DNA from: an uncultured bacterium | Lineage (GTDB): Bacteria > Auribacterota > JACPWU01 | DNA length: 32,000 nucleotides | Assembly: GCA_964640155.1 (NCBI GenBank) | Contig: CAZXEQ010000007.1 | Location: forward strand, 120,001 to 152,000 | Reading direction: 5' to 3' | Shown here: in pieces, positions 2 through 17,162 of the stretch | How the letters are laid out: the number at the start of each line of letters is the position of its first letter | Position numbering within the stretch: position 1 is the first letter of the stretch | Notes under the pieces: model-generated | What the model was told of the DNA's origin: nothing | The model's input: the letters and a program-made list of their open reading frames with translations, nothing else | The model's database searches: none | Translations under genes and position numbers: made by a program

Positions 2-3000
2 GAAAAAGTTGCTAGAGGAGATTTTCAGGCTGATGAATGGAATGGTGAGGTTGAAGCAGCTTTTGGAAGGGCTTGGACCATTTTAAGAGAACGTGCAAAA
101 ATTTATGTAATTGAGAGAGAAATGATTAAGGCCATGGAAGTTTATGCTGTAATGGAAGATGTTTTAGCTGATTTTGCTACTTCAACGAATGTTCCTGATA
201 GTGAAAGTATTTCCCAATTGGGCGCTCATTTAAAAGCAGATCTTCAATTTTTGTCGAATGAGTTAGTGTCTTCCATGGATTATATTTGGACTGATTCGAC
301 GGCATTATTAAGATCAGATGAAAATGCTCCTTATCATTTGGCGGCGACTTATTTAAAGATCATTTTGGATGTGAATGCTGGAGTTCAAAGGGGAGAGAGC
401 TTAGGAGGAGCAGGAGTAGATAACTTTATGGGGATATCTTGGACATTACTTAGGAATAGAGCAGCACTTCATGTTCGTCGAGGAGAATTTGATGAAGCTA
501 GGGCTATTTATGCTGTTATGCGAGGAGTGTGTAATAATTTTATAGAATCATTTTACCTCGAAGCTGAGGAAAGACAGGTGCGTGAAGAATTTATTGTTCA
601 AAAATCGTTAGATTTAGATCGCGGTTTAAGCTCCTTAGCTTTGGCTCAAGCCAGAAGAGCCTTGGATGAAGGGAAAACGATTGATGTAATAGCAGATTTT
701 CTTTTGCCTGTGATTACAGCCAGTAAGGACAGTGAACTTATATCGATTCAAACTCAGGCTTCTGATTTTTTAGTTTCTAATTTACAGGAAAAAATGAGTG
801 AGGGGGAAGCTCTTTTTGAAGTAACAGCGCAAGCTTTGTTAACAGGGGATTGGGCTATTGGTGAGGCAAATCTTAAGGTAATAGAGCCAGTATTAAATCT
901 TTTAAATAAAGTAAGGTTGGAGTCTTTGTATGATGGAAAAGTAGATTCTAAAAGAGTAGACGCTTTTAGAGAAAGAGGAGGTGCTTTTAAACAAGCTTTT
1001 GCTTTTGGAAGTACTCGGTTTGCTGAATTAAGAAAGATGACTGATCTTGAGAGAACAATGATCGTGGGGGGATTTGAAGCAGCCAGAGCTTCAATAAACC
1101 AGCTGATATTGGTTTGCAAAGTTTTCCCTGGTGAAGAGGCTTGCTATGCAGAGATTTTGATTGCGGTTTTTGACCAAATCCAACAATTGTATGGAGAGCA
1201 AAATCCAGTTGAAGCATCTAGAATTAGATCCGAAATTCTGGGGACTCAAGAGAGAATAGCTCATGAGAGATCTCAAGATGCAAAACTTCCTGAATGGAAA
1301 AAGTATTTTGAAGAAAATCTTTTGCCGCGTATTTCATTGATTGAAGATTTAAGACGAGTGGTTGCAGCTCAAGGGAGCAGAGAGGATTTGGTGGCAGAGC
1401 AAGTGACTGCTGTGAATACTGTGCTAGTTGCAGAGTTGGCCAATGCACTTCATCATTCAGGATTAGAAACTCTTGCTGGAGAGTTTAGGACAGCTGTATT
1501 TGCTCATTACACAGCTAAAATCGATGAATATTTAACTGCTTCTCCTATCAAAATAGATGAGGCCAAAGAAGCTCTGGCTGTTCTTGAAGCTGTTGATAAA
1601 GAGAATGCAGCTATTGCTGTTTATCGACCAAAGGTGAAGGGAAAAACTCCTGTCCTAGATCCCGTTGAAAGAGCGTGTGCTGCTTTGGATGCAAATTTGA
1701 CGGCTGCTAATATTCAGGCTGTAACAGAAACTTTTGAAGAATATGAATTTGGAGAGAAAGATCTTGAAAGAGTTTTTGATTCTCTGAGTAAAGCTGTGGA
1801 AACCCTTTCGGATATTGAAGAAGTGAGCGAGAGTGATTATTCTGCATTAAAAGCAGGACTTGAATCTGCTGGAAGTAAGATAGAATCAGATAGTCAACTA
1901 GCAACGTGGGCGATAGATGCGGATTCTCCTCTTCGACTTCAAGCTAAGTATTTTCAAACAACTGTTTGGGTGTCAAGTACTCGACGTTTATTAAATCGTT
2001 TTAAGAAATCAAAAAAATTAGATGATTTAAGAGCTCTACTTGATGTTTTAGAACAATATCCTAATAAGAAAGGTAGAGAATTGTTAGGCTTTGCGGAAAG
2101 TTTAGCTGATGTATTAATTGAAAATGGAATAAATCTCAGTTTAGAAGATGGAGTTTCTGCTTTATTTGCTCGAACCTATCAACTGCTGGATGATATCAAT
2201 TCTGTATCTGTAGAGGTGGTGACATATCCGGGTTCATCTTCTAAACCTTCAGGTCTTCCTCCCCTTGAACCTGGAAGTGTTTCTAGCCCATCTTTTTCTA
2301 AAATAAAATCTCCAACAGCTATTTCATTAGATAGAGCAACTTCTTCCCGAAAATTGTCGTCTTCTGCTCTTCCTGCTCTTCCTAAGGGAGAAAAAACTTT
2401 AAAGAGGGCAAAGGTTTCCCTTTTAAATGAACGAAGATGTGAAGTTTTGAAGGGGATAGGGAGTAAAGAATTTTCGGAGATAGCAAGAGTATTTAGTAGA
2501 GGAACATGGGTTATAGAGCGAGGACAAATTAGAAGCTTTGCTAATCTTAATGGCCTATTTCGTGAAGCAAACCCTCCTTTTAATACATTAGGAGAAGTTG
2601 TTACAGATTCGGAAGCGAAAGAGAAAGTTTTTAACATGCTTTCTTCTCTGTTTGTTTCTAGATTGGAAGAAGTATCTGATGAAATAAGTAAAGGGAGTGC
2701 TGAAGTAAAAAAATTAGATCTTGCTGAAAAATTAAGTCTAACTTTTTTAAAGGCTGCTGAAGCTTTTGTTCAAAGATATGAAGTCAGTGGTTTGCCAGCT
2801 AGTCCAAGTCTCGCTGCTTTAAGAGCAGGAATAGCTGAACATCTAAAAAGAGGCATTAGAGATTTAGTGATTGCTTTAGAAGCTCAAGGAGATGAAGCTG
2901 CTATTTTAGATGAAGAAGGAGCAGAAGAGAAAGCAGCAGCATTTTATCAAAGAGCAATGAATCTTTATGAAAAGTTTAATGCTCTTTTGTTGGATGATCA

Positions 3001-6000
3001 GAAACTGGATTTTAGTGACATATTTATTTCACGAGTGAAAAAAGCAAAAGATCTTATTGATCAGGGCAGTATAGATGCAACTAAGTCAGATTCCGCTGAA
3101 AAGTTAAGTCTTCTTCTTTTGAATGCTGCGCGAATCTTTATTGACAGATATGAAGCAAGGGATTTGTCAGCTAGTTCGAGTGTAGTTGCTTTGAGAGCGG
3201 GTATAGCTGAACATTTGAAAGGAAGTGTTAAGGATCTTGCTTTGTATTTTTCTAATGAAGGAGATAGAGCGGCTGCTGTCGGTGGGATAGAGGCTGAAGA
3301 GAGTACAAATCTCCTTTATCAAAGAGCTGTTAATCTTTATGAAAAATTAAATGCTCTTTTGCCAGACGGACAAAAGATAGAAGCCAAAATTATTCGAGCT
3401 CTTAATGCAAAGATGGGAAAAGATTCAGATTGGAATGCAATCGAAACGGAAGCTTTGAGTATCACTGCTTCTCTCACTGCTGATCAAAGAAAAGAAATTT
3501 TGATTTGGGTTCAAGGCTGGATAGCTGAACCAGGAAGAGAAAAGTTTAGAATTCAAAAAGTTTTAGGAGCTGGAGAAAAAGGTCTTGTTTTTTTAATGAC
3601 TCGTCCAGATCTTAAAGGGGGACAAGAAGAAGTTGTTTTAAAGGCAAGTTTTATTGCAGCTGGAGATGAAAGTGTTGAAGTTAAATATGATCGATACTTA
3701 AAAGAATTTTCTAAAGATCCTGCTCTTCCTATCGATCATTTTGTGAGACTGCTGGATGCTGGACATGCTCCTTCTTCTTCTATTGAATGGTCTATTCAAT
3801 CATTTGCTGATGGTTTAGAAGGACCTTTTATCAACGCACAGGAGATGGGGCAGGAAACGGATGATTCTAGGAAGTTTGAGCATGGCAATTCTTTTGAAGG
3901 TCATTCAGTTGTTTATGATACTCGCCCTGATGAACAAATAGATCTTGCGATTCAATTGGCTCAAATTCTTGCTCATTTACAAAAGAAGAACATAGTTCAT
4001 GCAGATTTTCATGAAACCAATATTCAGATAAAAAGAGATTCCTCAGGACGTAGGAGAATTGTTGTCGTTTTGGATCCAGACAATTCGACTGATGTGGATC
4101 CTGATCATCTTTGGACGGTTGTACATATCCCATTAGATGCCTTAGAAAGAAAGGGTGCTTCTAGCCGATTGAGTTTGGTGGGTGTAGACGACAGTATAAA
4201 AGTTGATTTAATTCCTGTGTCTGGCTGTGAGGGTGGTCGTGTAAATGTACATCCTGATCAAAATCTTTTAGTTGTTCAACTTAAGATTTCTAGAGAGAAG
4301 ATGTTGGGGAGAAATAAGGGCTTGCCATTCACATTTACGTTTAATGATAGAGAAAATAAATTTGAGATTACACCTGTTTTACGTAAAAAGACTTCAGATG
4401 AAAAAGCTCAAGCTAACATGGATGTTCAGTCAGGTGTTCGGTTGATGCTTGAGCTATTGACAGGTAGAATTATTGATCCTACGCAGCTTTTCAAAGAAGG
4501 CAGACGTATTTCCTCTATTCAAAAAGACCAAATGCTAAAGCATTGGGCAGAAGTGATGAAAGTGGATATCTCTGCTTTGCCTGCCTCAGTAAGTGAGTTA
4601 GCTCCTAAAATTCTAGATGCAATTTATAAGCTTTATGAAGGCAAATCTACACTTGAGGAATTTGAAGTTGAGATGCGAGCGTTTCTTGCTATTCTTTCTC
4701 CTATTTTAGCTCCTGCTGCAAAGCCTGAAGCACCCAGACCACCACCGCCTGGAGCAAGTGCTCCTCAACCTCCTGTTGAGCCACCATCTCCAGCAGCTCC
4801 TCCTGCTGCACCTGCAACATCTGCTGCCACAGAAGCGGCAACAGATGTGGATACGCTTTTGGATAGGGTAGAGAATGTACTTCAAAGTACAGATTTTGTA
4901 GATTTAGTTGAGATTCGCAATCTTTATGATGGAGAGAAAAGCCCGGTGATGATTCTTAAAGAAGAGACTTTTTCGCCAGAACAAAGAGCACGACTAGAGG
5001 CTTGGCCCTCATTGCTTCATGCTGCTTTTGAGCGTTTTGCTGTAACTACAAATGCACGTAGAGATCCTCATAGCAGAGCCTTAGACGAACTTAATCAAGG
5101 AAAAGCAATACTTGTTTTCTCTACTCTGTTTCGACTTGTAGATTCAATGATAGGTGTTTATGCCCAAGAAGAATTAGATGATTCAACAATCAGGAAGGAA
5201 TCACAGCTTCTTTGGGGAGAATATAATACAAACCATGATTCTGTTTTACAAACTAAAGGACAAACACTCGATGCGGCAACCGAACAAAAACCTTTCTATA
5301 GAATTATAGCAGACTTATATCAAGTTGCTGATAAGACATTACCATCTACAGAAAGAATTGATGCAGCTAGAATTCGTGAGGTCAGAAGACTTGCAGGTTT
5401 AAGAGTCAGTACACCTCCAGCTTCTGTTGCTGCGATTACTTTTACTAGGGGCGCTAAATTTAAGGGAGGTAAAATAGAAAGGACCGTCATTGCAGTAGAA
5501 GGAGACGAAGTTATTTGTTGGGTTAATGAAGATGGAACTGAATATGTCGAAAAAGGCCCTTCTCTGATATTAAGAGAAGCTGTAACAAATGCACGAGCAA
5601 AACTCTTAACCTACGAAGCTTCTACTCCTGCAGCTATTGCAGCAGCTCAACCTGCGATTGAGGTCTATGAAAAGGCAATAGGTGCTAGTGTAAATGTGTG
5701 GGAGGGCAGAGCGGATAATAAGATTTCTTTGGCAGATCTTCAGGGGCTCATCCCAACAGATGATTCATTAGATGCAGGTGATGCAATCATAGATGCACCT
5801 TCGGCTGGGGGTGAACCTGCACTTGCTGTGGGTCCTGCTCCAATGAGAGCGCCGACATATCCTTCTCCAGCGATGCCTGTAGCTGCTACGGGGCCATCAT
5901 CCTCAGCACCTGTTACGCCTCCCACAGCTGCGTCAGCGCTTCCTGAAACAGAGATATCTTTATCAGGAGAGCTTTCTGTATCAGTGGAGGATTTGAAAGG

Positions 6001-9000
6001 AAGGGTTTTAACGCTGACATTAGGAACAAGCAAATATTTCAAAATGGAAGTCAGTGTTGTTTATGATGAAGAGGAAGGTCGATTTATTTTATTTGATGGA
6101 GATGGTAAAGGTAATCATCGGTTTTTAAATGAAGGGGAAGTAATTACTGTAGGGCGTAAAAGAGCAGACTTGGAAACAGTAGGAATTTCAGATTTAGCAG
6201 ATTTTGAAGTTAATAATTCCAGTCTTTCAGAATTTAGGACTCTTATGGCGCATAAACAGATTTCTGTTTCTATTCAAGGAGGAAAACTGATTGTCAAAAG
6301 TATTTCGGACAAAACAACGCTTTATCATGCTGAAACAGTTGTTTTACCTATAGCTCCTTCTATAAAAGATCCAATAACAACGGCAGATGTTGTTCAGGGA
6401 GCAAGCAAACCTTCTCTTAACCATCCTGCATGGAATGAAGATTGTGGTTTTGCAGAAATAATCAATGGCTGGGTTGTGACAGGGGTTTTTGATGGTATGG
6501 GAGGTTATGGTGGTGGAGAGTTAGCTAGCAATATTACACGAATGATTGTGCATGCGGCACTAAAACGGGACTTTTCTTCTGGTGTTAATGAAGACAGTAT
6601 TCCTCAAATTCTTGCCGATGCTTTTTTAAAAGCGCAAGAAATTATTCAATTCATTGTATCTTTGAGAGATTTTCTTCAAAGCACACCTGAGCAACTTTTG
6701 GGTATTGCGGAAGCTATGGAACGAGAGCACGGTGTTAATAAAGACGAGTTTAATGATTTGCTCTTGCGTATTGTCCGAAGGGGAAAACCTATTTCTGAAA
6801 TGGGAACTGCAGCGCTTGTGCATGTCGTAGTTCCTCAAGCTGATGGAACTTCCAATGTTTATCTTATTCAAGCAGGAGATGTTCGTACTTATCTTGTTTC
6901 TTCTGATGAAACTTTTGAACCTCTCACAGTTGATAATATTTCTGGCAGCGACGATGGTTCCCTTAAAACAATTACACTTGAGCAAGTGAGAGAAAAATGG
7001 AAAGCGTCTCATCTGCAGGCTTTAGTTACAGTTGAAACGGATAGAGATTTAGGGGCTTTAGGGCCGATTGAAAGGATTATGTTTAATAGGCGACATACGG
7101 TTGAAAATGTTCTTAAAAGGGATTACAAACCTGTCATAACAGTTGCTAAAGGTGTGAAAGGAATACTTTTGACAATGACGGATGGTGGACATGACCCGTT
7201 GATTGATCGTGTAATCGAAGAAGAGTTTAAGGCAGGATCCATTGCTGAAGCTCCTCAAAGAATTCTTCGTCGAGCAAGAAGTGTGAAAACAGGTCCTCGG
7301 GCTAAAGACGATGATGCTCTCATTATGGTAACCCAAATGCCAGAAGTTGTTGCAAAATCTGCTTCTGCTTCGGCCGGCCCGTCAGCAGGTGCGCCAGCCC
7401 CAGCTTCAGCACTGGTTGCTGCGCCTACATCTGCTGCTCCTCTTCAAGTAAACGTCGGAGATGTTTTCCTGGCTATAACAGGGTTGAGGCGCGTGGTTGT
7501 TCGAAAAGATGGTGATGCTCTTTATTGTATAACCACGAATGGAAGCAATATTTATTTAGAATCATTGGATGTTGCAAAGATTAGATCAGATGTTAATACA
7601 AAGTTTCTTGCACCTGCTACCTCTAATACTACTGATCAAGAGCATATTGACAACGCTTTAAAACCAGGAAATGTTTTTAGCAATGCAACAACCAATGAAC
7701 ATCTTATTCTGGTCTCAGAAGATCGAACAACAGGCGCGATGTTTTTCTTAAAAATTGTGGGAGATTTAACAGATTTGAGTGCTGTAGATACGGCTACAAT
7801 TGAAACGGGCTTAACTATCAATGATGTTTTAGGTAAAGCTTGGGCTTATAACAAAGATGTAAGTGCGAACCCCACTTTGGGTGTAGAGGTGGCGAAAGTT
7901 ACTGGGGCGATAAATAAGCTTGAGGCTGCAGGTGCTACAGTTGTAAGTGGTAGCGTATGGCTTGATTTAGAGAGACAATCCCTGGGGATTGATTTTAAAA
8001 ATTATAATCAAGGAGATGTCATTATTGATCCCAATGTTTCAGATAATGAAGGTAGAAAAATAGGAGATTCTTATCTTTTTATTATGGAAGATGGAGATAA
8101 TGCTATTTTTTATTCTTTCGGGAAAAAACAACTTATTCATATTTCAAAGGTAGAAGTTATAGAGGGAATTAAATCTAAAAATCTTCAATATAATCATCGA
8201 GATCAAAGCCGAGCTGCTCATGAAAAAATGGCGAAAGATTTTGAGCCATTTCTACGGACGATAAATACTATTCCTCTTACAGATATTCAAGATGAAATTA
8301 TTCCTCAAAGCAATACGATCAAAATAGATCCTAGACAATTGGGTAGAGACCGTTTTATGACTTTAACTATTCCTGGTAGAAATCCAGGAGAAACCGAAGA
8401 ATATTGTTTAATGTATGATGTTCGAGTGGACAAAGTGATCGTTTGTCCCTTCTTTAAGACGGGTCTTAAACAATGGGCTTATTTACAGCCTGGATCTAGT
8501 CCAAAATATAAACAGACAAAAACTCCCAGTTTTATGAATCATGTGGAAAAGCAAATTACTCTTTTTAGAGATGTAAATGGTCAATTAGTTATTCGGGCTT
8601 TATCTGCGGACATTTCTCTTCAGGTTTATCCGGGTGCATCAAATGCTCTTAATATGCATGTGGGAAAAGAGGTGGTTTCTGATGGGAATGAAAAAGCTTA
8701 TGCAGAACAAGCTGCTCGTTACCATGCTTATCAGAGTGAAGATGCCTTTTTTACTTTATTTTTACGCCGAGCTGCTGTTTTAGGTCTTTGTGATGGAGTC
8801 GGAGGGCGTGATGCTGGAAATATTGCTAGCCAGGTGGCGAGTCTTTTAATCCAGGCTTCTATCAAAGATTTTATGAGTGCTCATGAAGGTACAGGTCGTC
8901 CGTTAACAAACAAAGATATAAAAAATTGCTTAACTCTGGCAATTCAATTTGCAGATAGAAAAATTTTTGAATTATCCCAAATTGAAATTAGCGATATTGA

Positions 9001-12000
9001 TACAGATGGAGCAGTGGTAGTGGGTAGTCCTCTTGAGGATTTATTTCAATGGGATTTGAGAGGAGATGATTTAAATCAAGTTTTGATATTCGTTACAACG
9101 GCTTTAAAAGCAGCTCGGGATAATCGACCAGGAGAGGCTAAACCATTTTTGGGTATGGCCACGACTGTTGTTGTAAGTGTTGTTTTTGTAAATGACAAAG
9201 GAGAGCAAGAAACCGTCGTTGCCAATGTCGGAGATAGTCGAGCTTATAGGGTGTATGAAAATGGAAGTGTAGAAAGAATTACACGAGATGATGGGGCTAT
9301 TTACAATACGATCACTGAGGCTGTTGATGAAGAAGTGATTCCACTTGGAGCAGGAGATCAAATCCTTTTAGATCCTACAAAAGCTTCTGAGATTTTTGAA
9401 AGCTTAGATGCAGGTTTGGATGATACAGGTGTTTCTGAAGATCGAATTAGAGAATATGCGCAGATTTATCAAGGAAAAGGAGCTATTACTGCTGCAGATG
9501 CTGCAATCATTCTTACCGATCATACGACTGAAGCTGCTAGAGTTATTTTTCGCAAAGTACATACATGGCGGCTACTGAATCTGGCTATTTTCTTAAGTAA
9601 ATATGATAGAAAGTATGAAGGGTTGCAGAAGTTGGTAACGGCTTTAGATGGTGCTCAGTTAGAAAGTATTTTAAGCCGTTGTGGTGTTCCTGATCCTGAG
9701 CTTCAAAGAATGTCAGTTTCTGGTCGAGTGTCAGCAGAGCTTTTGGCCCAATATGTTAAGCAATACGAGGAAACCCATTCTAATTTTGTTCACTTCCTTC
9801 AAGAATCTTTAATAAAGGCTTTTTATAAAAAGTGGTGGCAGGATGATGTCAAGCTAGAAGAGGTTGGGATGGATGATCATGGATTAGCCAAAAAGCTATA
9901 TTCTTCTAGGAATACAATTTCAGCAAGTGTTGGCAGGGGTCATTTTACAGGAGAAAGAGGCCCAAGATTCTTTAGTCCTAGTGGAACAGGCAAAGGACGT
10001 CTTATTGTTGTTTGTGATGGTGGTCCGGATAATGTTCCAGACCGACAGTTGGAAGAAGCTATTGAAAAGAAGTTAAGAAAAGGCGCTTCTTTTGAAGATA
10101 TACCTATAGAAGAACTGTATGTCACAATGGCACGTGACAATGTGGATGCTGAAAGATCACAAACTGCAGATGATGATATTTCCTGTGCTAGTGTTAAAAT
10201 GCCTGTGAAGCTTGCTGCTCCTGTTGCTTCGACAAGACCTGCACCACCTCCTGTTGTACGACTTGCAGCAAGCGGTGGAGTTGCTGCGGGAGCCCCGGCT
10301 CAGCCAGGGCAGCCGGGAGCGAAAGTTCAGGTGGCACCAGGATCTGCTCAAATGTCAGACGCTAAAAAAGCTGCTGCTGTGGGAGTAGCCCCGGAATTAC
10401 TTAAGAACGACCGATTAATTAATTCTTCTATACAGGATTTGAGATCATGGTTTTCATCTTTAAAAACTCCTTGGAAAGTAATAGGTGGAGGAGTGATTAT
10501 AGTAAGTCTTATAGGCGTTGTAGTATCAGGAGCAGCGGTTTCTATTATAAGTTTTCTTAATCCGTTTGCAGTAAATCTTCTCATTGGAGTTGGTAGTGCA
10601 ACACTTGTTGGATTTTTATTATATTCTAAAGTTGATAAGACAAGTGAAGATAGATGGCCAATAATTATTATCCCCACCATACTTACATTTCTTTCTATGA
10701 CGGCAGGAAGTTATATTGTGATGGATAGTTGGAATTCTTTAGTGAATTGGCTTAATAATTTTATTGCTCATATTGCCACGTCTTCTGATACAAACTCTTC
10801 TTCTCCTGTGACTATATCGACCGCGTCTATTACAACTTTATTTAAACCCCATCGTACAAAGCAATCTACGCTGACTTTAAAAGAATACGTAGAAAAAATT
10901 TATGAGATTTATTCAGATCTTTCTACTCAGAAATGGGTTAAGAGAAGTTTAAAAATATTTATTGTGATTGCGCCTCTTGTTGTATTTTTATTTCCTCAGC
11001 TTGCATTTGCAAATAACGGTTCCGTCTTAGGATGGAATGCTCCGACTTTTGTCCTAATTTCACTTATTCTAGCTGCCATTGTATTAGGTGTTAGAGCTAA
11101 TTTGAGAACCCATAAACTTGAAAGACGGGCTCCCCTTACAAAAGATTTGATGAATTTACATCTTATCGAAAGGCTTTTAAAGGAACATGGCAAAAGTGCT
11201 AAATCATCTCCTCCTGTTGAATTTGTCCTTACAATGGAGTCGCCAGATGATTTTCATGTGGCTGCTGCCCTTCCTGGTGGGGAAGTACTTACAAGTAGGT
11301 TTGATAGAGACACAGAGGACGAACTTAATCAAAAAAATAAAGAGGCTCAGGAACATGTCCGTGACTATTGGATGAGGCGTAAAGGGTATGTGCCGCAATT
11401 TATGGATAGTGCTTTTGGCCTTGGCATTAGGAATAGAATTAAATTCTATGCAGGAATGTTTTATAGAGCTGATAAACCTGCAAATGCAGAAGCATCATTC
11501 CTTCGAAGAAACATAAAAAATGAAACTGTACAATTTGAGATTGGAATCAATCTTCAGCTTTTAGAATATCCTATGCTTTTTGAACTTTTTCTTGTTCATG
11601 AATTTCACTATGCCGATTTGTTTATTTTTAGAGAAACTGTTAGGGAGGGGAAATTGGGAATACCTCAAGAGCAACAAGCTCGTTTGTCTGGGTATTTTCT
11701 TGGAGAATTTAATGATGTGGGGGCGGCCGTTAAGGAAGGTTTTGAAGAAACAACTATTTATTTTGAGGATTTTAAATACTTTCTTTCTTTAGAGCCAGAA
11801 CAGAGAAAACAAATTATCAAGGGTCTTGAGAAATTAAGAACTCAATATCCTGGTGTTACAATTTTTGAGTCTTTCTTTAAAGTATTCAGCGAATTGGCTA
11901 TGTATACTCTTTCTGATGATTCTGAAAAACACTTAATGGGTTTAGCAATAGAATTGGCAAAAAATCAATCTACAAGTAATAAAGAAGTTTTTCCAAAATA

Positions 12001-14116
12001 TGAACGAGCGCTTGTTCCCTATGGAGTAAGCCTGGTTGATCATGCGCTTTCTGTTCACAGAATGTTAATGTCATTTGGATCTTTAACAGAGGATGAAGTT
12101 GAGAGCATTTTAAAACGAAAAAAAGTTTTAGAATTTATAAATCCCATTCCTAGAGGTTATGAAGCAAATACTCCAGCAGCCAGTGCACGTGTTTTGGGGA
12201 GAACAGTAGAGCGTATGAGAGGAGTGAAAGGAGGTCCTGCCAGTCATTTTGCGAGCCCCTTTGGGATGGGAGTCGATGCTGGACTTGCTCCCAACAATGA
12301 GGATGCAGGTATAGTGATACAGAAATTGATGAACGCTATGGAAGATTCAAAAACTTTAAGTGAAAGACAAATTCAAAATGGTCCAAGAGTTGTTTTTCAT
12401 CAAGAAGATAAAGCTGTTGCAGATCAAGTTGAAAGTTTTATGGGAACAGAAGCTTATCGTACGTTAGGGGATGGAGTGAAACAAACTCTTCAAAATATAA
12501 GAATTGCGCTTTTACCTCCGGATCAAGATTCGGGGGATCAACCAGCTCAAATATCCATTGTCGAGAATCCTTTGGGGGCAAGTTATGCCCATTACGGTCA
12601 AGATGAAGAACCTTCTATATTTATGAGAGCGGAGTTTTTAAAACGATTACTCACGTTAAAAAATGGACCTCAAGTTTTTGTAACATTACTTAAGCTTGAA
12701 AGTAATCGTTATGAGCATCGGCAAGGTGGTAAAGAAGATAATCGTTCTTCTGCTCAAGTGGTTAAAGATGCAGGTATCACAAGAGCTGAGCTTTCAGCTT
12801 TATTGGATGCGATTGTGGATATTGAATCGGATATTCTTTTAGAAAGAAAAGATTTAGATGTGACTGAATTGATTATTCGCTCGGCGACTGTTTTAGAACA
12901 CAAAGCTGATCAAGCCAGTGTAGATAATATTATTTTAGGAAAGTTGAGAGGAAAACTTCTAAATGTTTTAGTTGCCAAACTGGCTCAGAGAATGAAAAAT
13001 CAAGAAGAGCGTTTAAGTCAAATTCGAGCTGCTGTGACAAAGCTTGAAACAGCAAGAAGTAAAGATGAAGGTCATACTTTAGTTAAGGCTTTAAATGAAG
13101 CTTTGGGAAATATTCAAAATATTCAATCTATTGGGTTTGATCTTTTGATGGGGGAAGTGGTTGTTTATACTTCTGATGGAAAGACTCAAACGGTAGAACT
13201 TGGGGCTGCTTCTCAAGCTCTAAGTCTTATGATTGAAAAGTTAGTTGGAAATGTACAAATGGTAGTATTGGATCTGCCTGCTGGTGAGGACCCAGATGAA
13301 CTCTCAAGTTTTCTTGAAAATACAATCGGAATTTTGATGAATCCGGATCAAAGATCTTTAGCCCGAGATGAAAAGCCGCTTTCGATTGGAGATTTGACTG
13401 CACAGCGTTTGAAGATAGGGGATGGAGAATTGGTTCATGTGGGGCGAGGAATAGGTAACTTAAGAAAAATGACAGCTAAGACAAAGCATAATCTCACAGC
13501 ATTGGATGCAGTTAAATTTTTTGATGCAGAAGCAAATAAAAATACAGAACATCCTGTTCTTATAGAAGCAGCACTTTTACAAGCAAAATTGGCTTTGTTG
13601 GAAGGCTCCGAACGAGAAGCTTTTTTAAAGCTCTGTGAAAAATATTATGCTGTGATTCGAGGACAAAATATAGAAGGACTGTCGGCAGAAGTTCAAGAAG
13701 CTTTATGGAAAAATTACAATAAGTTTTCCCAATTACCTTCTGATTTTAGAGTCGTTATTCTATCAAGTGAAGTAGAGCGTACAGATGAAATGAAAGATGC
13801 AATGATTTTAAAATTTAATTCTGAGCAAAGAGATCAACCTAATGCTCTTACTCAAGTGATGAGTTTCGCTTCTTATGTTGCCAATGTAGGTAAAGAAGCT
13901 GCAAAAGGTGATTCTCGGGCTGCAGAAATGTTTGAAGCCCTTCTCAAAGCACTCTATGCTGGAGACGAGGAGAAGATGCAAGAAATACTAGATAATATGT
14001 CTTTGAAAGAAATTTTATCTAACCCAGAATTCGTTTTCCCTCCCATCAATACCCATTTCATGCAAGATCTGGATTCCTTCTTGCGGGCCCAACGCACCGT
14101 CGAAGCGATGGCGTAG
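2..14116 (+). CDS. Giant multidomain membrane-anchored protein, 5'-partial in this window (helical/TPR-like N-region, kinase-like domain, two PP2C phosphatase domains, Pro/Ala linkers, TM cluster, unknown C-terminal region)
   Basis: The frame has no stop from nt 2 to TAG 14114-14116. The ORF track starts at ATG 122 (4664 aa), but codons 2-121 are also open and continue a repeat motif. The longest competing ORF in the other five frames is 152 aa. Recognisable kinase-like and PP2C motifs are listed as separate features. Confidence 0.92.
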   Translation, partial: EKVARGDFQADEWNGEVEAAFGRAWTILRERAKIYVIEREMIKAMEVYAVMEDVLADFATSTNVPDSESISQLGAHLKADLQFLSNELVSSMDYIWTDSTALLRSDENAPYHLAATYLKIILDVNAGVQRGESLGGAGVDNFMGISWTLLRNRAALHVRRGEFDEARAIYAVMRGVCNNFIESFYLEAEERQVREEFIVQKSLDLDRGLSSLALAQARRALDEGKTIDVIADFLLPVITASKDSELISIQTQASDFLVSNLQEKMSEGEALFEVTAQALLTGDWAIGEANLKVIEPVLNLLNKVRLESLYDGKVDSKRVDAFRERGGAFKQAFAFGSTRFAELRKMTDLERTMIVGGFEAARASINQLILVCKVFPGEEACYAEILIAVFDQIQQLYGEQNPVEASRIRSEILGTQERIAHERSQDAKLPEWKKYFEENLLPRISLIEDLRRVVAAQGSREDLVAEQVTAVNTVLVAELANALHHSGLETLAGEFRTAVFAHYTAKIDEYLTASPIKIDEAKEALAVLEAVDKENAAIAVYRPKVKGKTPVLDPVERACAALDANLTAANIQAVTETFEEYEFGEKDLERVFDSLSKAVETLSDIEEVSESDYSALKAGLESAGSKIESDSQLATWAIDADSPLRLQAKYFQTTVWVSSTRRLLNRFKKSKKLDDLRALLDVLEQYPNKKGRELLGFAESLADVLIENGINLSLEDGVSALFARTYQLLDDINSVSVEVVTYPGSSSKPSGLPPLEPGSVSSPSFSKIKSPTAISLDRATSSRKLSSSALPALPKGEKTLKRAKVSLLNERRCEVLKGIGSKEFSEIARVFSRGTWVIERGQIRSFANLNGLFREANPPFNTLGEVVTDSEAKEKVFNMLSSLFVSRLEEVSDEISKGSAEVKKLDLAEKLSLTFLKAAEAFVQRYEVSGLPASPSLAALRAGIAEHLKRGIRDLVIALEAQGDEAAILDEEGAEEKAAAFYQRAMNLYEKFNALLLDDQKLDFSDIFISRVKKAKDLIDQGSIDATKSDSAEKLSLLLLNAARIFIDRYEARDLSASSSVVALRAGIAEHLKGSVKDLALYFSNEGDRAAAVGGIEAEESTNLLYQRAVNLYEKLNALLPDGQKIEAKIIRALNAKMGKDSDWNAIETEALSITASLTADQRKEILIWVQGWIAEPGREKFRIQKVLGAGEKGLVFLMTRPDLKGGQEEVVLKASFIAAGDESVEVKYDRYLKEFSKDPALPIDHFVRLLDAGHAPSSSIEWSIQSFADGLEGPFINAQEMGQETDDSRKFEHGNSFEGHSVVYDTRPDEQIDLAIQLAQILAHLQKKNIVHADFHETNIQIKRDSSGRRRIVVVLDPDNSTDVDPDHLWTVVHIPLDALERKGASSRLSLVGVDDSIKVDLIPVSGCEGGRVNVHPDQNLLVVQLKISREKMLGRNKGLPFTFTFNDRENKFEITPVLRKKTSDEKAQANMDVQSGVRLMLELLTGRIIDPTQLFKEGRRISSIQKDQMLKHWAEVMKVDISALPASVSELAPKILDAIYKLYEGKSTLEEFEVEMRAFLAILSPILAPAAKPEAPRPPPPGASAPQPPVEPPSPAAPPAAPATSAATEAATDVDTLLDRVENVLQSTDFVDLVEIRNLYDGEKSPVMILKEETFSPEQRARLEAWPSLLHAAFERFAVTTNARRDPHSRALDELNQGKAILVFSTLFRLVDSMIGVYAQEELDDSTIRKESQLLWGEYNTNHDSVLQTKGQTLDAATEQKPFYRIIADLYQVADKTLPSTERIDAARIREVRRLAGLRVSTPPASVAAITFTRGAKFKGGKIERTVIAVEGDEVICWVNEDGTEYVEKGPSLILREAVTNARAKLLTYEASTPAAIAAAQPAIEVYEKAIGASVNVWEGRADNKISLADLQGLIPTDDSLDAGDAIIDAPSAGGEPALAVGPAPMRAPTYPSPAMPVAATGPSSSAPVTPPTAASALPETEISLSGELSVSVEDLKGRVLTLTLGTSKYFKMEVSVVYDEEEGRFILFDGDGKGNHRFLNEGEVITVGRKRADLETVGISDLADFEVNNSSLSEFRTLMAHKQISVSIQGGKLIVKSISDKTTLYHAETVVLPIAPSIKDPITTADVVQGASKPSLNHPAWNEDCGFAEIINGWVVTGVFDGMGGYGGGELASNITRMIVHAALKRDFSSGVNEDSIPQILADAFLKAQEIIQFIVSLRDFLQSTPEQLLGIAEAMEREHGVNKDEFNDLLLRIVRRGKPISEMGTAALVHVVVPQADGTSNVYLIQAGDVRTYLVSSDETFEPLTVDNISGSDDGSLKTITLEQVREKWKASHLQALVTVETDRDLGALGPIERIMFNRRHTVENVLKRDYKPVITVAKGVKGILLTMTDGGHDPLIDRVIEEEFKAGSIAEAPQRILRRARSVKTGPRAKDDDALIMVTQMPEVVAKSASASAGPSAGAPAPASALVAAPTSAAPLQVNVGDVFLAITGLRRVVVRKDGDALYCITTNGSNIYLESLDVAKIRSDVNTKFLAPATSNTTDQEHIDNALKPGNVFSNATTNEHLILVSEDRTTGAMFFLKIVGDLTDLSAVDTATIETGLTINDVLGKAWAYNKDVSANPTLGVEVAKVTGAINKLEAAGATVVSGSVWLDLERQSLGIDFKNYNQGDVIIDPNVSDNEGRKIGDSYLFIMEDGDNAIFYSFGKKQLIHISKVEVIEGIKSKNLQYNHRDQSRAAHEKMAKDFEPFLRTINTIPLTDIQDEIIPQSNTIKIDPRQLGRDRFMTLTIPGRNPGETEEYCLMYDVRVDKVIVCPFFKTGLKQWAYLQPGSSPKYKQTKTPSFMNHVEKQITLFRDVNGQLVIRALSADISLQVYPGASNALNMHVGKEVVSDGNEKAYAEQAARYHAYQSEDAFFTLFLRRAAVLGLCDGVGGRDAGNIASQVASLLIQASIKDFMSAHEGTGRPLTNKDIKNCLTLAIQFADRKIFELSQIEISDIDTDGAVVVGSPLEDLFQWDLRGDDLNQVLIFVTTALKAARDNRPGEAKPFLGMATTVVVSVVFVNDKGEQETVVANVGDSRAYRVYENGSVERITRDDGAIYNTITEAVDEEVIPLGAGDQILLDPTKASEIFESLDAGLDDTGVSEDRIREYAQIYQGKGAITAADAAIILTDHTTEAARVIFRKVHTWRLLNLAIFLSKYDRKYEGLQKLVTALDGAQLESILSRCGVPDPELQRMSVSGRVSAELLAQYVKQYEETHSNFVHFLQESLIKAFYKKWWQDDVKLEEVGMDDHGLAKKLYSSRNTISASVGRGHFTGERGPRFFSPSGTGKGRLIVVCDGGPDNVPDRQLEEAIEKKLRKGASFEDIPIEELYVTMARDNVDAERSQTADDDISCASVKMPVKLAAPVASTRPAPPPVVRLAASGGVAAGAPAQPGQPGAKVQVAPGSAQMSDAKKAAAVGVAPELLKNDRLINSSIQDLRSWFSSLKTPWKVIGGGVIIVSLIGVVVSGAAVSIISFLNPFAVNLLIGVGSATLVGFLLYSKVDKTSEDRWPIIIIPTILTFLSMTAGSYIVMDSWNSLVNWLNNFIAHIATSSDTNSSSPVTISTASITTLFKPHRTKQSTLTLKEYVEKIYEIYSDLSTQKWVKRSLKIFIVIAPLVVFLFPQLAFANNGSVLGWNAPTFVLISLILAAIVLGVRANLRTHKLERRAPLTKDLMNLHLIERLLKEHGKSAKSSPPVEFVLTMESPDDFHVAAALPGGEVLTSRFDRDTEDELNQKNKEAQEHVRDYWMRRKGYVPQFMDSAFGLGIRNRIKFYAGMFYRADKPANAEASFLRRNIKNETVQFEIGINLQLLEYPMLFELFLVHEFHYADLFIFRETVREGKLGIPQEQQARLSGYFLGEFNDVGAAVKEGFEETTIYFEDFKYFLSLEPEQRKQIIKGLEKLRTQYPGVTIFESFFKVFSELAMYTLSDDSEKHLMGLAIELAKNQSTSNKEVFPKYERALVPYGVSLVDHALSVHRMLMSFGSLTEDEVESILKRKKVLEFINPIPRGYEANTPAASARVLGRTVERMRGVKGGPASHFASPFGMGVDAGLAPNNEDAGIVIQKLMNAMEDSKTLSERQIQNGPRVVFHQEDKAVADQVESFMGTEAYRTLGDGVKQTLQNIRIALLPPDQDSGDQPAQISIVENPLGASYAHYGQDEEPSIFMRAEFLKRLLTLKNGPQVFVTLLKLESNRYEHRQGGKEDNRSSAQVVKDAGITRAELSALLDAIVDIESDILLERKDLDVTELIIRSATVLEHKADQASVDNIILGKLRGKLLNVLVAKLAQRMKNQEERLSQIRAAVTKLETARSKDEGHTLVKALNEALGNIQNIQSIGFDLLMGEVVVYTSDGKTQTVELGAASQALSLMIEKLVGNVQMVVLDLPAGEDPDELSSFLENTIGILMNPDQRSLARDEKPLSIGDLTAQRLKIGDGELVHVGRGIGNLRKMTAKTKHNLTALDAVKFFDAEANKNTEHPVLIEAALLQAKLALLEGSEREAFLKLCEKYYAVIRGQNIEGLSAEVQEALWKNYNKFSQLPSDFRVVILSSEVERTDEMKDAMILKFNSEQRDQPNALTQVMSFASYVANVGKEAAKGDSRAAEMFEALLKALYAGDEEKMQEILDNMSLKEILSNPEFVFPPINTHFMQDLDSFLRAQRTVEAMA
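2723..3382 (+). repeat. Internal tandem duplication inside the giant CDS: two copies with a 372-nt (124-aa) period and a conserved 96-aa core
   Basis: Copy 1 starts AEKLSLTFLKAAEAF at 2723 and copy 2 starts AEKLSLLLLNAARIF at 3095. My ungapped hand alignment gives 53 identical residues of 96, including ALRAGIAEHLK and YQRA-NLYEK-NALL. The similarity is also visible at nucleotide level. Confidence 0.85.
3545..4690 (+). other. Protein-kinase-like (PKL superfamily) domain of the giant protein, atypical catalytic loop
   Basis: Gly-rich loop LGAGEKGLVF (GAGEKG at 3566-3583); VLK lysine motif; catalytic loop IVHADFHETNIQI (3998-4021) in place of HRDLKPEN; LDPD in place of DFG; subdomain-IX-like DVQSGVRLMLELLTGR around 4425-4470. 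Confidence 0.6.
4709..4842 (+). other. Pro/Ala-rich low-complexity linker 1 of the giant protein
   Basis: APAAKPEAPRPPPPGASAPQPPVEPPSPAAPPAAPATSAATEAA; a locally GC-rich stretch. Confidence 0.8.
5792..5953 (+). other. Pro/Ala-rich low-complexity linker 2 of the giant protein
   Basis: DAPSAGGEPALAVGPAPMRAPTYPSPAMPVAATGPSSSAPVTPPTAASALPETE. Confidence 0.8.
6434..7333 (+). other. PP2C (PPM-family) Ser/Thr phosphatase domain 1 of the giant protein
   Basis: PPM motifs occur in the canonical order: NEDCGF (6434), GVFDGMGG (D at 6491), MGTAALV, QAGDVRTYLV, LLTMTDGGHD, DDDALIMVTQ (ends about 7333). Confidence 0.75.
7339..7447 (+). other. Pro/Ala/Ser-rich linker 3 of the giant protein
   Basis: EVVAKSASASAGPSAGAPAPASALVAAPTSAAPLQ. 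Confidence 0.75.
8729..10201 (+). other. PP2C (PPM-family) phosphatase domain 2 of the giant protein, split by an insertion of about 205 aa
   Basis: YQSEDAFF (8729), GLCDGVGG (D at 8792), GMATTVVV, ANVGDSRAYRV, then an insertion at 9293-9907, then RNTISASVG, LIVVCDGGPDNV, ADDDISCASVKM (ends 10201). Confidence 0.75.
10207..10350 (+). other. Pro/Ala/Gly-rich linker 4 of the giant protein
   Basis: KLAAPVASTRPAPPPVVRLAASGGVAAGAPAQPGQPGAKVQVAPGSAQ. Confidence 0.75.
10472..11092 (+). other. Cluster of 5 (possibly 6) predicted transmembrane helices in the giant protein
   Basis: Hydrophobic runs: VIGGGVIIVSLIGVVVSGAAVSIISFL; FAVNLLIGVGSATLVGFLLYS; WPIIIIPTILTFLSMTAGSYIVM; LKIFIVIAPLVVFLFPQLAFA; APTFVLISLILAAIVLGV. 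The last is followed by the basic stretch RANLRTHKLERR. Confidence 0.7.
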
Positions 14117-14148
14117 CATATTTACTTTTAACCTTAAGTTCTAGCCAG

Positions 14149-14154
14149 TATAAT
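14149..14154 (+). promoter_or_regulatory. Possible -10 box (TATAAT) immediately upstream of cinA
   Basis: A perfect TATAAT lies 8 nt before ATG 14163. I see no Shine-Dalgarno sequence and only weak -35 candidates, which would imply a leaderless or near-leaderless transcript. Confidence 0.25.
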
Positions 14155-14162
14155 TAACCTTA

Positions 14163-15422
14163 ATGAAAAAAATTATCACTATCTCTACAGGCACGGAGTT
14201 GATGTTGGGTTATGTCATGGACCAAGATTTTGGATTTATGGCAAAGGAGTTTTCCAAAATAGGATGTCCTGTGTATCGCCATTACACGGTTGGGGATGAT
14301 TTTAAGGAGCTTCAAAAAGTTTTTGCAGAAGCTCTTTTTCTGTCTGATATTGTTGTTCTATCAGGGGGATTAGGTCCTACCACAGATGATTTGACCCGAG
14401 AAGTGGTGTCTAGCGTCCTCAAAAGGCCTTTGGAGATGAACAAAACTGTTCTAAAGGATCTTAAGCGTAAATTTCATAAAAGGGGCCTAGAAGTTCCTCT
14501 ATCTAATGAGAAGCAAGCTCTTGTATTAAAAGGAGCAAAAGTGATTTCCAATCACTTTGGAACAGCTCCTGGAATGTACATTCAAGAAAAAAAGAAAAAA
14601 ATTTTTTTACTTCCAGGTCCACCTTTTGAATTAAATCCCATGTTTGAGAGAAATGTAAAAGCTGTTATTCAAGCTGCGATTAAGAAAGATCGACTTCGTT
14701 TTATAAGTTTTAGAACTTTTGGAATTCGGGAATCAGATGTTCAAGAAAGAATGAGTAAAATTTTTAAGGATGCTCCAAAATTTTTGAATGGTCTTGGATA
14801 CACGTCGTCACCTCATGGTGTGGATGTTCGAGTAGCTGGTAAAGAGCGAAGTTGGGATAAACTTTTTTCTTTTATTCAACGGCTCGAAAAAGATCTTAAA
14901 GAGTGGATTTATGGATTGAATCGAGAATCAATGGAAGAGATTGTTGCAAAATTATTATTTCAAAAAAATAAAACTTTAGCCATTGCTGAATCTTGTACAG
15001 GAGGACTTTTAGCTCAGAGACTTACCAGCATTTCTGGGATTTCTAAGGTATTTAAATTAGGTGTTGTTTCTTATTCTAATGAAGCAAAACAAAATATTTT
15101 AGGTGTTCGATCAAAAACTCTTCAGAAATTTGGTGCTGTGAGTCAAGAGGTTGCTTCAGAAATGGCTTTAGGTGTTCGCAAGAAAGCTAGATCTGATTTT
15201 GGTGTATCTATCACAGGCATTGCAGGTCCAACAGGGGGATCTCCTGAAAAACCTGTAGGGTTGGTGTGGATTGGTTTAACAGATGGTAAAAAAACTTATG
15301 TGCAAGAGCATCATTTTCTCGGCAGCCGCGATGTAATTCAATTCAAAGCCTCTCAAGCGGCGTTAGATATGTTGAGAAGATTATTACTGCATCAGAATCG
15401 AGCGAACCAAGAAATTATTTAA
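14163..15422 (+). CDS. cinA: CinA-family competence/damage-inducible protein (MoCF-type domain plus PncC-type NMN amidohydrolase domain)
   Basis: GGLGPTTDDLTRE motif in the N-terminal domain and LAIAESCTGGLLA in the C-terminal domain; positioned upstream of recA. Confidence 0.9.
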   Translation: MKKIITISTGTELMLGYVMDQDFGFMAKEFSKIGCPVYRHYTVGDDFKELQKVFAEALFLSDIVVLSGGLGPTTDDLTREVVSSVLKRPLEMNKTVLKDLKRKFHKRGLEVPLSNEKQALVLKGAKVISNHFGTAPGMYIQEKKKKIFLLPGPPFELNPMFERNVKAVIQAAIKKDRLRFISFRTFGIRESDVQERMSKIFKDAPKFLNGLGYTSSPHGVDVRVAGKERSWDKLFSFIQRLEKDLKEWIYGLNRESMEEIVAKLLFQKNKTLAIAESCTGGLLAQRLTSISGISKVFKLGVVSYSNEAKQNILGVRSKTLQKFGAVSQEVASEMALGVRKKARSDFGVSITGIAGPTGGSPEKPVGLVWIGLTDGKKTYVQEHHFLGSRDVIQFKASQAALDMLRRLLLHQNRANQEII

Positions 15423-15488
15423 AAATGGGTCCCGGATATCCCACGGGACTGCTTCGCTGAAAGATTTCCGGGATGACAAGCTAAAATA

Positions 15489-16043
15489 ATGCGTATTTTT
15501 ATTGCAGTTGAAATTCCTCATGAAATTCGAGAAAAAATCTATAAAGATTTAGTGCCTCTGCGTAAAACCTTCCCAAAAGTTAAATGGATTCGTCCTGAAA
15601 ATCTTCATTTAACTCTGAAATTTTTAGGAGAAGTTTCAGAGAAAAAGCTTAAAGTTATTCATGAGAAAATATCGGATCTTTCATCTTTCAAATCTTTTTC
15701 GATTAAATTTTTGGGTTTAGGTGGTTTTCCAAATTTAAGTCGTCCAAAAGTTATTTGGATGGGGATTGATCAAGGGGAGGAAGAACTATCTAATATAGCT
15801 TCTTATCTAGAATCTGAACTGGAAAAAGTGGGATTCCACCTTGAGAATCGCTCCTTTCAAGCACATTTGACTTTGGCAAGAGTAAAAGATTTTAGAGAGG
15901 TAAAAGGCTTTTGCGAAAAAGCCTCTTTTTTTGATAAAACAAGCTTTGCGAGTTTTTCGGTAAATATGGTATCTTTGATACAAAGTTCCCTGACTCGGGA
16001 GGGAGCCACTTATCAATGCTTGCATCAGATAAGGTTAGGTTAA
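15489..16043 (+). CDS. thpR: RNA 2',3'-cyclic phosphodiesterase (2H phosphoesterase, LigT/ThpR family)
   Basis: 184 aa with the two H-x-T-x motifs of the family (NLHLTLKFLGE and QAHLTLARV). Confidence 0.88.
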   Translation: MRIFIAVEIPHEIREKIYKDLVPLRKTFPKVKWIRPENLHLTLKFLGEVSEKKLKVIHEKISDLSSFKSFSIKFLGLGGFPNLSRPKVIWMGIDQGEEELSNIASYLESELEKVGFHLENRSFQAHLTLARVKDFREVKGFCEKASFFDKTSFASFSVNMVSLIQSSLTREGATYQCLHQIRLG

Positions 16044-16091
16044 AAGGCGTATAACTTTTACAATTTTTCATTTTAAATAAAGGGGCCAGCA

Positions 16092-17147
16092 ATGCCAGAG
16101 TCAGCCACATTACAAGACAGACAAGAGCAGAAAGAAAAACAGGAAAAAACGGATTCAGGAAGAGATAAAGCTTTAGAAGTTGCAGTTGGTCAAATTGAAA
16201 AACAATTTGGTCAAGGGGCCATCATGCTTTTGGGATCAGATCGTCCGGTGGTTCCTATTTCTGCTATTTCAACAGGGGCACTGTCTTTAGATATCGCTTT
16301 AGGAATTGGGGGAGTTCCGCGAGGACGTATTGTTGAAATTTTTGGACCTGAATCTTCTGGTAAGACAACATTAGCTCTTCAAATTGTGGCCAATGCCCAA
16401 AAAGCAGGTGGAAAAGCGGCATACATTGATGCAGAACATGCACTTGATCCCGCCTACTCAAAAATAATCGGCGTAGATATTCAAAGCTTACTTATCTCTC
16501 AACCTGATTGTGGTGAAGATGCACTCAACATTGCTGAAGTTTTGGTTCGTTCCAATGCATTGGATGTTATTGTTGTGGATTCGGTAGCAGCATTGGTCCC
16601 TCGTGTTGAAATTGAAGGCGAAATTGGTGATCAGCACATGGGGCTTCAAGCCAGACTGATGAGTCAGGCTTTAAGAAAATTAACAGCATCCATTAGCAAA
16701 TCAAGAACCTGTGCTATTTTTATTAATCAGATCAGAGAAAAAATTGGTGTGATGTTTGGCAATCCTGAAACTACACCGGGTGGACGCGCGCTTAAATTTT
16801 ATTCATCTGTGCGGTTGGATATTCGACGTACAGGATCTATCAAAGATCCTAAGGGTGTTGTTGTGGGTAATCAAGTAAAGGTTAAAGTAGTAAAGAACAA
16901 AGTAGCACCTCCTTTCCGTGAAGGTGAATTTGATATTCTTTTTGGAGAAGGTATTTCAAAAGAAGGTACAGTGGTGGATGTAGGAGCTGCTTTGGGCGTT
17001 ATCGAGAAAAAAGGGACTTGGTTTGCCTATAAGAATGACAAGTTAGGACAGGGCAGAGAACAAGCGCGCGATTTCTTGAAAAAAGAGAGAGCCGTGATGC
17101 AAGCCATTGTGAAGGAAATTAAGGAAAAGACAGGACTTAAAGTTTAA
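16092..17147 (+). CDS. recA: Recombinase RecA
   Basis: Walker [13 protein letters not shown]; [37 protein letters not shown]; SD-like AAAGGGG upstream. Confidence 0.97.
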
Positions 17148-17162
17148 TTTTTATTAAAGAAG

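Follow-up and report, generated by a model that had tools for sequence, protein, structure and literature searches.

The subject of this study is a giant gene on a stretch of 32,000 nucleotides (nt) from an uncultured bacterium of the lineage Candidatus (Ca.) Auribacterota (contig CAZXEQ010000007.1); this whole stretch, nt 1–32,000, is called the window. The plus strand of the window encodes a divergent Hanks-type kinase-like domain and two PP2C phosphatase domains (PP2C-1 and PP2C-2) in one continuous reading frame (nt 2–14116). Our interpretation, which we consider moderately probable, is that the gene encodes a membrane-embedded giant signalling protein with a membrane-tethered phospho-switch, in which the numbers of kinase and phosphatase modules are variable. 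Within the window the chain consists, in order, of helical repeats, the kinase-like domain, Pro/Ala/Ser-rich linkers, two modules that each contain a β-rich domain and a PP2C domain, five or six transmembrane (TM) helices, and a tail of ~1,000 amino acids (aa). Residue numbers are counted from the ATG at nt 122; the part of the protein listed from that ATG (nt 122–14116, plus strand) has 4,664 aa and a mass of 512.7 kDa.

The giant gene and its relative P0001

The reading frame contains no in-frame stop from nt 2 to 122, upstream of the listed ATG, and is therefore open at the 5′ edge of the window. The open reading frame listing starts at nt 122 because the first ATG of the frame sits there. 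The Logan contig SRR8893623_18027 (36,978 nt) was 100% identical to window nt 4163–19030 (14,868 nt), and on that contig the gene ending just before cinA was called as a 9,702-aa product. Together, the open 5′ frame and the 9,702-aa call mean that the 4,664 aa in the window are the C-terminal half only; by proportional estimate from 512.7 kDa per 4,664 aa, the full protein has a mass of ~1.07 MDa. An exact database look-up of the 4,664-aa product found no record, because the true call is 9,702 aa. An initial annotation of this DNA, which was made from the sequence and its open reading frames, had described a scaffold of ~0.5 MDa. That size was not borne out, since the gene is cut by the window edge; all 15 sequence motifs listed in the annotation were present where it had placed them, in a single frame.

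When 1.84 billion representative proteins were searched exhaustively with HMMER, a single relative was recovered, P0001 (6,482 aa, E = 6e-114). P0001 is encoded at L001:10001–29449 in sample SRR22387960, which differs from the sample of the contig matching the window (SRR8893623), and its gene is also followed by cinA. The single-gene status of the window sequence is thus seen in the continuous frame, in the identical contig with its 9,702-aa call, and in the syntenic orthologue P0001. The two proteins have the same domain order, with 37% identity in the kinase region and 36% from residue 2405 to the C-terminus, and they differ in module number. P0001 contains two kinase-like domains and one PP2C domain, whereas the window part contains one kinase-like domain and two PP2C domains; P0001 is without a counterpart of the PP2C-1 module and has a second kinase-like domain. 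We infer that the copy number of the kinase and PP2C modules shifted during evolution (1+2 versus 2+1 in the two known members). At the N-terminus of P0001 is a hydrophobic, signal-like segment, and an additional TM cluster lies at aa 836–918, so that the enzymes of P0001 are placed between two clusters of membrane helices.

Other searches were negative. No homologue came from word-indexed protein searches with the kinase region, with the PP2C-1 module, or with the alignment of the C-terminal part; this result carries little weight, because the search with the C-terminal alignment missed P0001 even though the sequence of P0001 was in the query. Very long proteins seem to be poorly indexed in word-indexed searches, and negatives obtained with giant proteins need to be discounted. 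A scan of a genome collection with aa 1102–3376 and two metagenome scans with the family alignments also gave no relative.

The kinase-like and PP2C domains

Taken alone, the kinase-like domain scored below the Pfam gathering scores: 12.3 bits versus 31.7 for Pkinase and 16.3 versus 23.1 for PK_Tyr_Ser-Thr. Sub-threshold matches were also found to Kinase-like (14.6 bits) and APH (14.0 bits), and all four matches lay on the catalytic loop. A phmmer search of the PDB with this domain alone produced weak but colinear matches, including A-Raf, PknI, and the insulin receptor. A family profile was made from alignment A1, which contains the window domain and the two kinase-like domains of P0001 (K1 and K2) at 28–45% identity. 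This profile matched 62 PDB sequences at E < 1, and all 60 of those listed were protein kinases or kinase-like domains. The best matches were StkP (E = 6e-4) and then PknB; among those listed was a LanKC kinase domain, and none was an APH enzyme. Alignment with hhalign to the PknB kinase domain covered 165 columns, the Gly-loop and DFG included, and gave a probability of 96.1% (E = 2.9e-9), as compared with 3.9% for the kinase family against PKA and 0.9% against APH(3′)-IIIa. A close similarity to PKA was accordingly dropped in favor of the PknB/StkP type.

The AlphaFold2 (AF2) model of the kinase-like domain had a mean predicted local distance difference test (pLDDT) score of 53.8, with values of 70–89 in the N-lobe and below 50 in the C-lobe. 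In a Foldseek search with this low-confidence model, the best 50 matches were all kinase or kinase-like domains, with TM-scores of ~0.2–0.3. The low confidence of this model and of the PP2C-1 model described below arose because each alignment contained only three sequences. Judged by its sequence, the domain does belong to the Hanks superfamily, as an atypical representative of the PknB/StkP type.

The positions of the catalytic motifs are given in Table 1. Most of the residues expected of an active kinase have candidates that are shared by the three A1 domains. The first and last Gly of the Gly-rich loop are invariant, and a Lys in an LK context occupies the β3 position in 3/3 domains. The H, D, H, and N of the H-x-D-x-H-x-x-N loop are invariant, with D1295 and N1300 at the positions of the catalytic Asp and Asn. 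The first Asp of the DPD/DFG motif is also invariant, and domain K1 of P0001 retains DFG itself.

The domain also departs from the consensus at several places. In the loop HADFHETN the Arg of HRDxK is changed to Ala and the Lys to His; the corresponding loops of P0001 are HGDFHEVN and HGDMHGDN. An APE motif was not recognisable in the window domain. E1195 aligns with the αC Glu of RFQRE/RFRRE in StkP/PknB, and the same column contains Ala in K2 and Pro in K1 of P0001. The distance from D1318 to the αF-like D1434 is 116 residues, as compared with a canonical spacing of ~36 residues, for example from D184 to D220 in PKA. The resulting insert in the activation segment is present in 3/3 A1 domains and was modelled as strands with pLDDT below 50. 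The sequence LMLELLTGR is found at aa 1441, and we infer from the motif alone that NMDVQSGVRLMLELLTGR is equivalent to the Hanks DxWSxG...ELLTG motif. With its Gly-loop, β3 Lys, catalytic Asp and Asn, and Mg-binding Asp kept, the domain is probably a Ser/Thr kinase of an atypical, non-RD kind, which the large insert in the activation segment probably gates. Kinase activity is plausible, not assured.

The NCBIfam Stp1_PP2C (Stp1/IreP) model matched both PP2C domains, PP2C-1 with E = 1.8e-9 and PP2C-2 with E = 8e-17. In Pfam, PP2C-2 exceeded the gathering score of PP2C_2 (24.7 versus 24 bits), and PP2C-1 fell below those of PP2C (18.2 versus 20.3 bits) and PP2C_2 (17.3 versus 24 bits). The motifs begin at aa 2104 (NED), 2123 (FDGMGG), 2252 (GDVR), 2353 (TDGGHD), and 2396 (DDDALIMV) in PP2C-1, and at aa 2871 (SED), 2890 (CDGVGG), 3037 (GDSRA), 3298 (CDGGPD), and 3350 (DDDISC, ending at nt 10201) in PP2C-2. 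A profile was made from alignment A2, which contains the two window modules and the orthologous module of P0001. All 16 of its PDB matches were PP2C phosphatases, the best being Staphylococcus aureus Stp1 (9e-13; PP2C-2 alone matched Stp1 with E = 1e-6), PstP (2.5e-8), tPphA (2e-7), and PppA (0.02).

The metal-binding Asp residues of xED, DGxGG, GDxR, xDG, and DDD are invariant and in order in 3/3 A2 modules. In the numbering of the PP2C-1 module the invariant positions are D158, D175-G176, G303-D304-R306, D405-G406, and D447–449, and the Asp motifs align to NED, DGMGG, GDSR, and SDG of Stp1 and PstP. The AF2 model of the PP2C-1 module had a pLDDT of 49.9; its best 50 Foldseek matches in the PDB all had the PPM fold, with TM-scores of 0.53–0.62 for tPphA. 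PP2C-2 contains a helical insert of ~230 aa between GDSR and CDGG (approximately nt 9305–9991), which is common to the PP2C domain of P0001. With every metal-binding Asp in place, both domains are probably active Mn/Mg phosphatases.

The PP2C-1 and PP2C-2 modules are 24% identical (BLASTP, E = 4e-7), and the similarity begins in the β-rich domain that precedes each of them. The β-rich domain before PP2C-1 was predicted as strands (AF2, pLDDT ~55–67). An FHA identity for these domains was rejected: hhalign against five FHA domains, with sequences entered by hand, gave a probability of 0.6%, and there was no Pfam FHA match in the window protein even at E ≤ 10. Small β-segments at aa ~2440–2700 were considered as SH3-like repeats and are not claimed, their shuffle z-scores being no higher than 2.4.

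These results bear on several statements of the initial annotation. It had placed a kinase-like domain at this site, and the PDB matches of the family profile and the hhalign probability with PknB agree with that placement. Its two complete PPM/PP2C domains in the same chain were recovered, with the Stp1_PP2C matches and the invariant metal-binding Asp residues, and its view that the two copies are divergent, not recent duplicates, fits their 24% identity, which points to an old duplication. It had proposed to check the domains against profile hidden Markov models: PP2C-2 passed Pfam PP2C_2 and both PP2C domains matched NCBIfam, whereas the kinase-like domain and PP2C-1 were sub-threshold in Pfam. 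The membrane anchor that it described corresponds to the cluster of hydrophobic helices found by hydropathy scan at aa 3449–3663.

That cluster is matched position for position in P0001. Helix 4 is preceded by a positively charged run (KWVKRSLK), and a second such run (RANLRTHKLERR) follows the last helix. A six-helix model with both flanks cytoplasmic would fit these charge runs under the positive-inside rule and the hydropathy profile. The region after the helices is the best-conserved part of the family. Over the last 560 aa (aa 4105–4664, window 12419–14113) the identity to P0001 is 43–73%, and over the last 160 aa it is ~70%. The C-terminal ~1,000 aa had no match in Pfam, NCBIfam, or the PDB, and the conserved 560 aa may be the functional core of the giant protein. 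A candidate HExxH metalloprotease motif near aa ~3820 (window approximately 11590–11620) was rejected: P0001 has HEQAH and the window protein HEFHY, so that the His-Glu pair is kept and the zincin spacing is not.

At the other end of the catalytic region, directly N-terminal to the kinase-like domain, the two halves of a duplicated helical unit are 49% identical over 77 aa (BLASTP between the halves, E = 2e-21). Low-complexity linkers rich in Pro, Ala, Ser, and Thr lie between the folded modules at window positions 4658–4801, 5800–5960, 7337–7440, and 10210–10380; they may serve as phospho-acceptor regions or as flexible tethers.

Table 1. Features of the giant gene in the window, in chain order; all are on the plus strand
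Feature	Window (nt)	Strand	Residues	Basis
C-terminal ~4,704 codons of giant gene	2..14116	+		Open frame at 5′ edge; full product called at 9,702 aa
Tandem duplication of ~115-aa helical unit	2822..3520	+		BLASTP between halves
Divergent Hanks-type protein-kinase-like domain	3533..4657	+	1138–1512	Family profile against PDB, hhalign, Foldseek
Gly-rich loop GAGEKG (GxGxxG)	3566..3583	+	1149–1154	Aligns with StkP, PknB
Candidate β3 (VAIK) lysine in VVLK (VVLKAS, aa 1171)	3641..3643	+	K1174	Aligns with VAVK Lys of StkP, PknB
Putative catalytic loop HADFHETN, non-RD	3998..4021	+	H1293, D1295, H1297, N1300	Aligns to HRDLKPQN (StkP), HRDVKPAN (PknB)
DPD (LDPDN, aa 1317), DFG equivalent; candidate Mg-binding Asp	4073..4081	+	D1318	Aligns to DFG of StkP, PknB
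Insert of ~105 aa in activation segment, predicted β-rich	4082..4396	+		D1318–D1434 spacing; A1
αF-like motif NMDVQSGVRLMLELLTGR	4415..4468	+	D1434	NMDVQ and ML..LTG invariant in A1
β-rich domain preceding PP2C-1	5969..6376	+		Homologous to regions preceding PP2C-2 and P0001 PP2C
PP2C-1 catalytic domain	6404..7336	+	2095–2405	NCBIfam, BLASTP, Foldseek, invariant Asp
β-rich domain preceding PP2C-2, paralogue of nt 5969–6376	8318..8686	+		BLASTP, A2
PP2C-2 catalytic domain	8705..10201	+	2862–3360	Pfam PP2C_2, NCBIfam, PDB Stp1
Cluster of 5–6 hydrophobic TM helices	10466..11110	+	3449–3663	Hydropathy scan
C-terminal ~1,000 aa, best-conserved family part	11111..14113	+		Identity profile against P0001

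Mode of action and alternative explanations

In the mode of action that we consider likeliest, the kinase and both PP2C domains would lie on the cytoplasmic side, tethered to the membrane. The kinase would phosphorylate Ser or Thr residues on the giant protein's own linkers or on recruited partners, and the PP2C domains of the same chain would reset these phosphorylations, forming a self-contained membrane-tethered phospho-switch. A more far-reaching proposal, which we regard as speculative and rather unlikely in its entirety, is that the two proteins represent a distinct class of ~0.7–1 MDa membrane proteins of the Planctomycetes–Verrucomicrobia–Chlamydiae (PVC) group. On the cytoplasmic side of such proteins, kinase and PP2C modules would be strung together in varying numbers; they would act in cis on the protein's own Ser/Thr/Pro-rich linkers and set the conformation or assembly of a membrane-spanning scaffold. 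In this view, the activation-segment insert and the β-rich domains would be novel folds that serve in regulation or in substrate docking.

Several points weigh against a phospho-switch of this kind. Catalysis by the kinase and by the PP2C domains is predicted from sequence, and the kinase is far from the consensus, with His for the loop Lys, DPD for DFG, no APE, and an αC Glu that the family does not share. Both AF2 models are of low confidence, the number and orientation of the membrane helices rest on hydropathy, and the PknB, PKA, and APH(3′)-IIIa reference sequences used with hhalign were entered by hand. The 5,038 N-terminal residues lie outside the window, and their content could alter the picture. 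The pairing of opposing writer and eraser activities on one chain is likewise a prediction, and a pseudokinase is possible.

As a pseudokinase, the kinase-like domain would form a nucleotide-binding or docking scaffold that offers substrates to the PP2C domains, and the chain would have eraser chemistry only. We consider this doubtful, though it is the alternative to be taken most seriously. The departures just described, the ~105-aa insert, and the Pkinase score of 12.3 bits against a cut-off of 31.7 are what a pseudokinase might show; the αC Glu is unconserved in both K1 and K2, and the pseudokinases JAK2 JH2 and KSR1 were among the Foldseek matches. However, the Gly-loop Gly residues, the LK Lys, the H-x-D, the Asn, and the first Asp of DPD/DFG have all been kept at 28–45% identity, as would be expected under selection for catalysis, and one of the paralogous domains of P0001 retains DFG. 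A different substrate class is also conceivable. The domain might be a kinase of the APH/choline-kinase/YihE type that acts on small molecules or lipids, with one or both PP2C domains acting on non-protein phospho-substrates. The HxDxHxxN loop resembles the HGDxHxxN consensus of the APH family, weak Pfam APH matches were found in the window protein (14.0 bits) and in P0001 (20.9 bits), the precomputed Pfam record of P0001 lists APH faintly, and one bacterial kinase-fused PP2C has been reported to act on PtdIns(3)P (PMC11846826). Against these stand the hhalign probabilities, on which the APH type was set aside for the PknB/StkP type (0.9% versus 96.1%), the PDB matches of the family profile, which among those listed were protein kinases and the LanKC kinase domain with no APH, and the Hanks-type N-lobe and LMLELLTG helix. 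We therefore consider an APH-type kinase very improbable.

We consider it slightly more improbable still that the protein is exported, or displayed at the surface, as a "weapon" or effector whose kinase and phosphatases would act on the proteins of another cell. Giant PVC proteins have been read as predatory or attachment devices (bioRxiv 10.1101/2023.11.21.568195; PMC12057145), and the Vibrio splendidus protein Sppsk1, which has the same two enzyme types, is an effector (PMC11846826); the proline-rich linkers and the signal-like segment at the start of P0001 would also suit export. The window part, however, yielded no SecA-DEAD, dockerin, carbohydrate-binding, or peptidase domain, the kinase and PP2C domains of P0001 sit between two TM clusters, and the neighborhood consists of conserved housekeeping genes with no secretion-system genes nearby. 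The membrane-tethered phospho-switch remains the reading that we prefer over these three.

Related systems and genome neighborhood

The initial annotation had contrasted the fusion with phospho-signalling modules that normally sit on separate proteins. The fusion is not without precedent: such composites have been known since 2005 (PMC1262709, PMC12088040, PMC11846826). Composite proteins with a PP2C and a Ser/Thr kinase domain were reported in that year from Pseudomonas and Deinococcus, as in the Pseudomonas aeruginosa gi|9947763 type (Krupa and Srinivasan, PMC1262709). According to a 2025 survey, Pkinase is one of the domains most often combined with PP2C in bacteria, mainly in Pseudomonadota, and PP2C-Pkinase proteins could both phosphorylate and dephosphorylate (PMC12088040). 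Sppsk1 has been studied functionally; it is membrane-anchored, with PP2C at aa 12–254, kinase at aa 389–545, and a TM helix at aa 571–593 (PMC11846826).

The window protein resembles these composites in having a Hanks-type kinase and PP2C in one open reading frame, and it shares a membrane anchor with Sppsk1. The known composites have one PP2C N-terminal to the kinase, are of ordinary size, and are mostly from Pseudomonadota (PMC1262709, PMC11846826). In the window protein, by contrast, the kinase stands ahead of two PP2C domains, which lie ~600 and ~1,350 residues beyond it in a chain of 9,702 aa. The protein is from Ca. Auribacterota, its three catalytic domains have diverged much further, a β-rich domain precedes each PP2C, and the kinase contains an activation-segment insert. 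Thus a writer and an eraser on one chain is a known principle, and it is the scale, domain order, divergence, and lineage that are unusual here.

For both enzyme types, the nearest relatives with solved structures are the PknB/StkP and PstP/Stp1 (PrkC-PrpC) pairs of Gram-positive bacteria, which have membrane-associated cytoplasmic catalytic domains, the location that we propose for those of the window protein. In these pairs the kinase and the phosphatase are separate products of an operon, and the kinase has canonical HRD/DFG/APE motifs together with PASTA sensor domains. The window protein, in contrast, joins the enzymes in one chain, lacks a PASTA domain, and contains a non-RD kinase whose activation segment is enlarged by an insert. 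SpoIIE and KAPP resemble the window protein in having a PP2C tethered to the membrane by helices of the same chain; neither has a kinase domain in that chain, and the FHA domain of KAPP is without a detectable counterpart here.

In lineage and size the nearest comparison is with the "Archaeovorins" and dockerin-type giants of Omnitrophota (bioRxiv 10.1101/2023.11.21.568195), which share a PVC affiliation, very large genes, TM clusters, and domains below profile thresholds. Those giants contain SecA-DEAD, carbohydrate-active, adhesion, and peptidase domains and have been read as extracellular (bioRxiv 10.1101/2023.11.21.568195; PMC12057145). Neither the 4,664 aa of the window nor aa 1–5,433 of P0001 yielded a SecA-DEAD, dockerin, carbohydrate-active, or adhesion domain; the recognisable content here is instead phospho-signalling enzymes, presumably cytoplasmic. 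Until now, giant PVC proteins have been seen as predatory tools that work outside the cell and not as machines for signalling in the cytoplasm. Should the domains prove active, the protein would be a natural single-chain kinase/phosphatase circuit, and bacterial giant proteins would be functionally more varied than has been assumed. The results also call for caution in annotation: through divergence, Pfam thresholds miss two of the three catalytic domains, and window-limited calls of open reading frames and profile thresholds both under-report giant genes.

The neighborhood of the gene is a chromosomal core context (cinA-thpR-recA-alaS), and the G+C content of the window is uniform. Downstream of the giant gene are cinA, a gene for a LigT/ThpR-like phosphoesterase, recA, alaS, mraZ, and a gene for a GGDEF protein. 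The opposite strand of the window encodes a TPR protein, a DUF520 protein, an Opp-type ABC transporter, a C26 peptidase, and an amidohydrolase. The AlaS protein was 94% identical to that of a Ca. Auribacterota metagenome-assembled genome, with the next best matches at 51–52% (Ca. Euphemobacter and other PVC bacteria). No secretion-system, FHA, or defense genes were found in the window, and a role in anti-phage defense was rejected, PADLOC having given only a match of 15 bits. At window positions 20081–21456, mraZ is followed by the GGDEF diguanylate cyclase gene; in dcw clusters, mraZ is usually followed by rsmH and the dcw genes.

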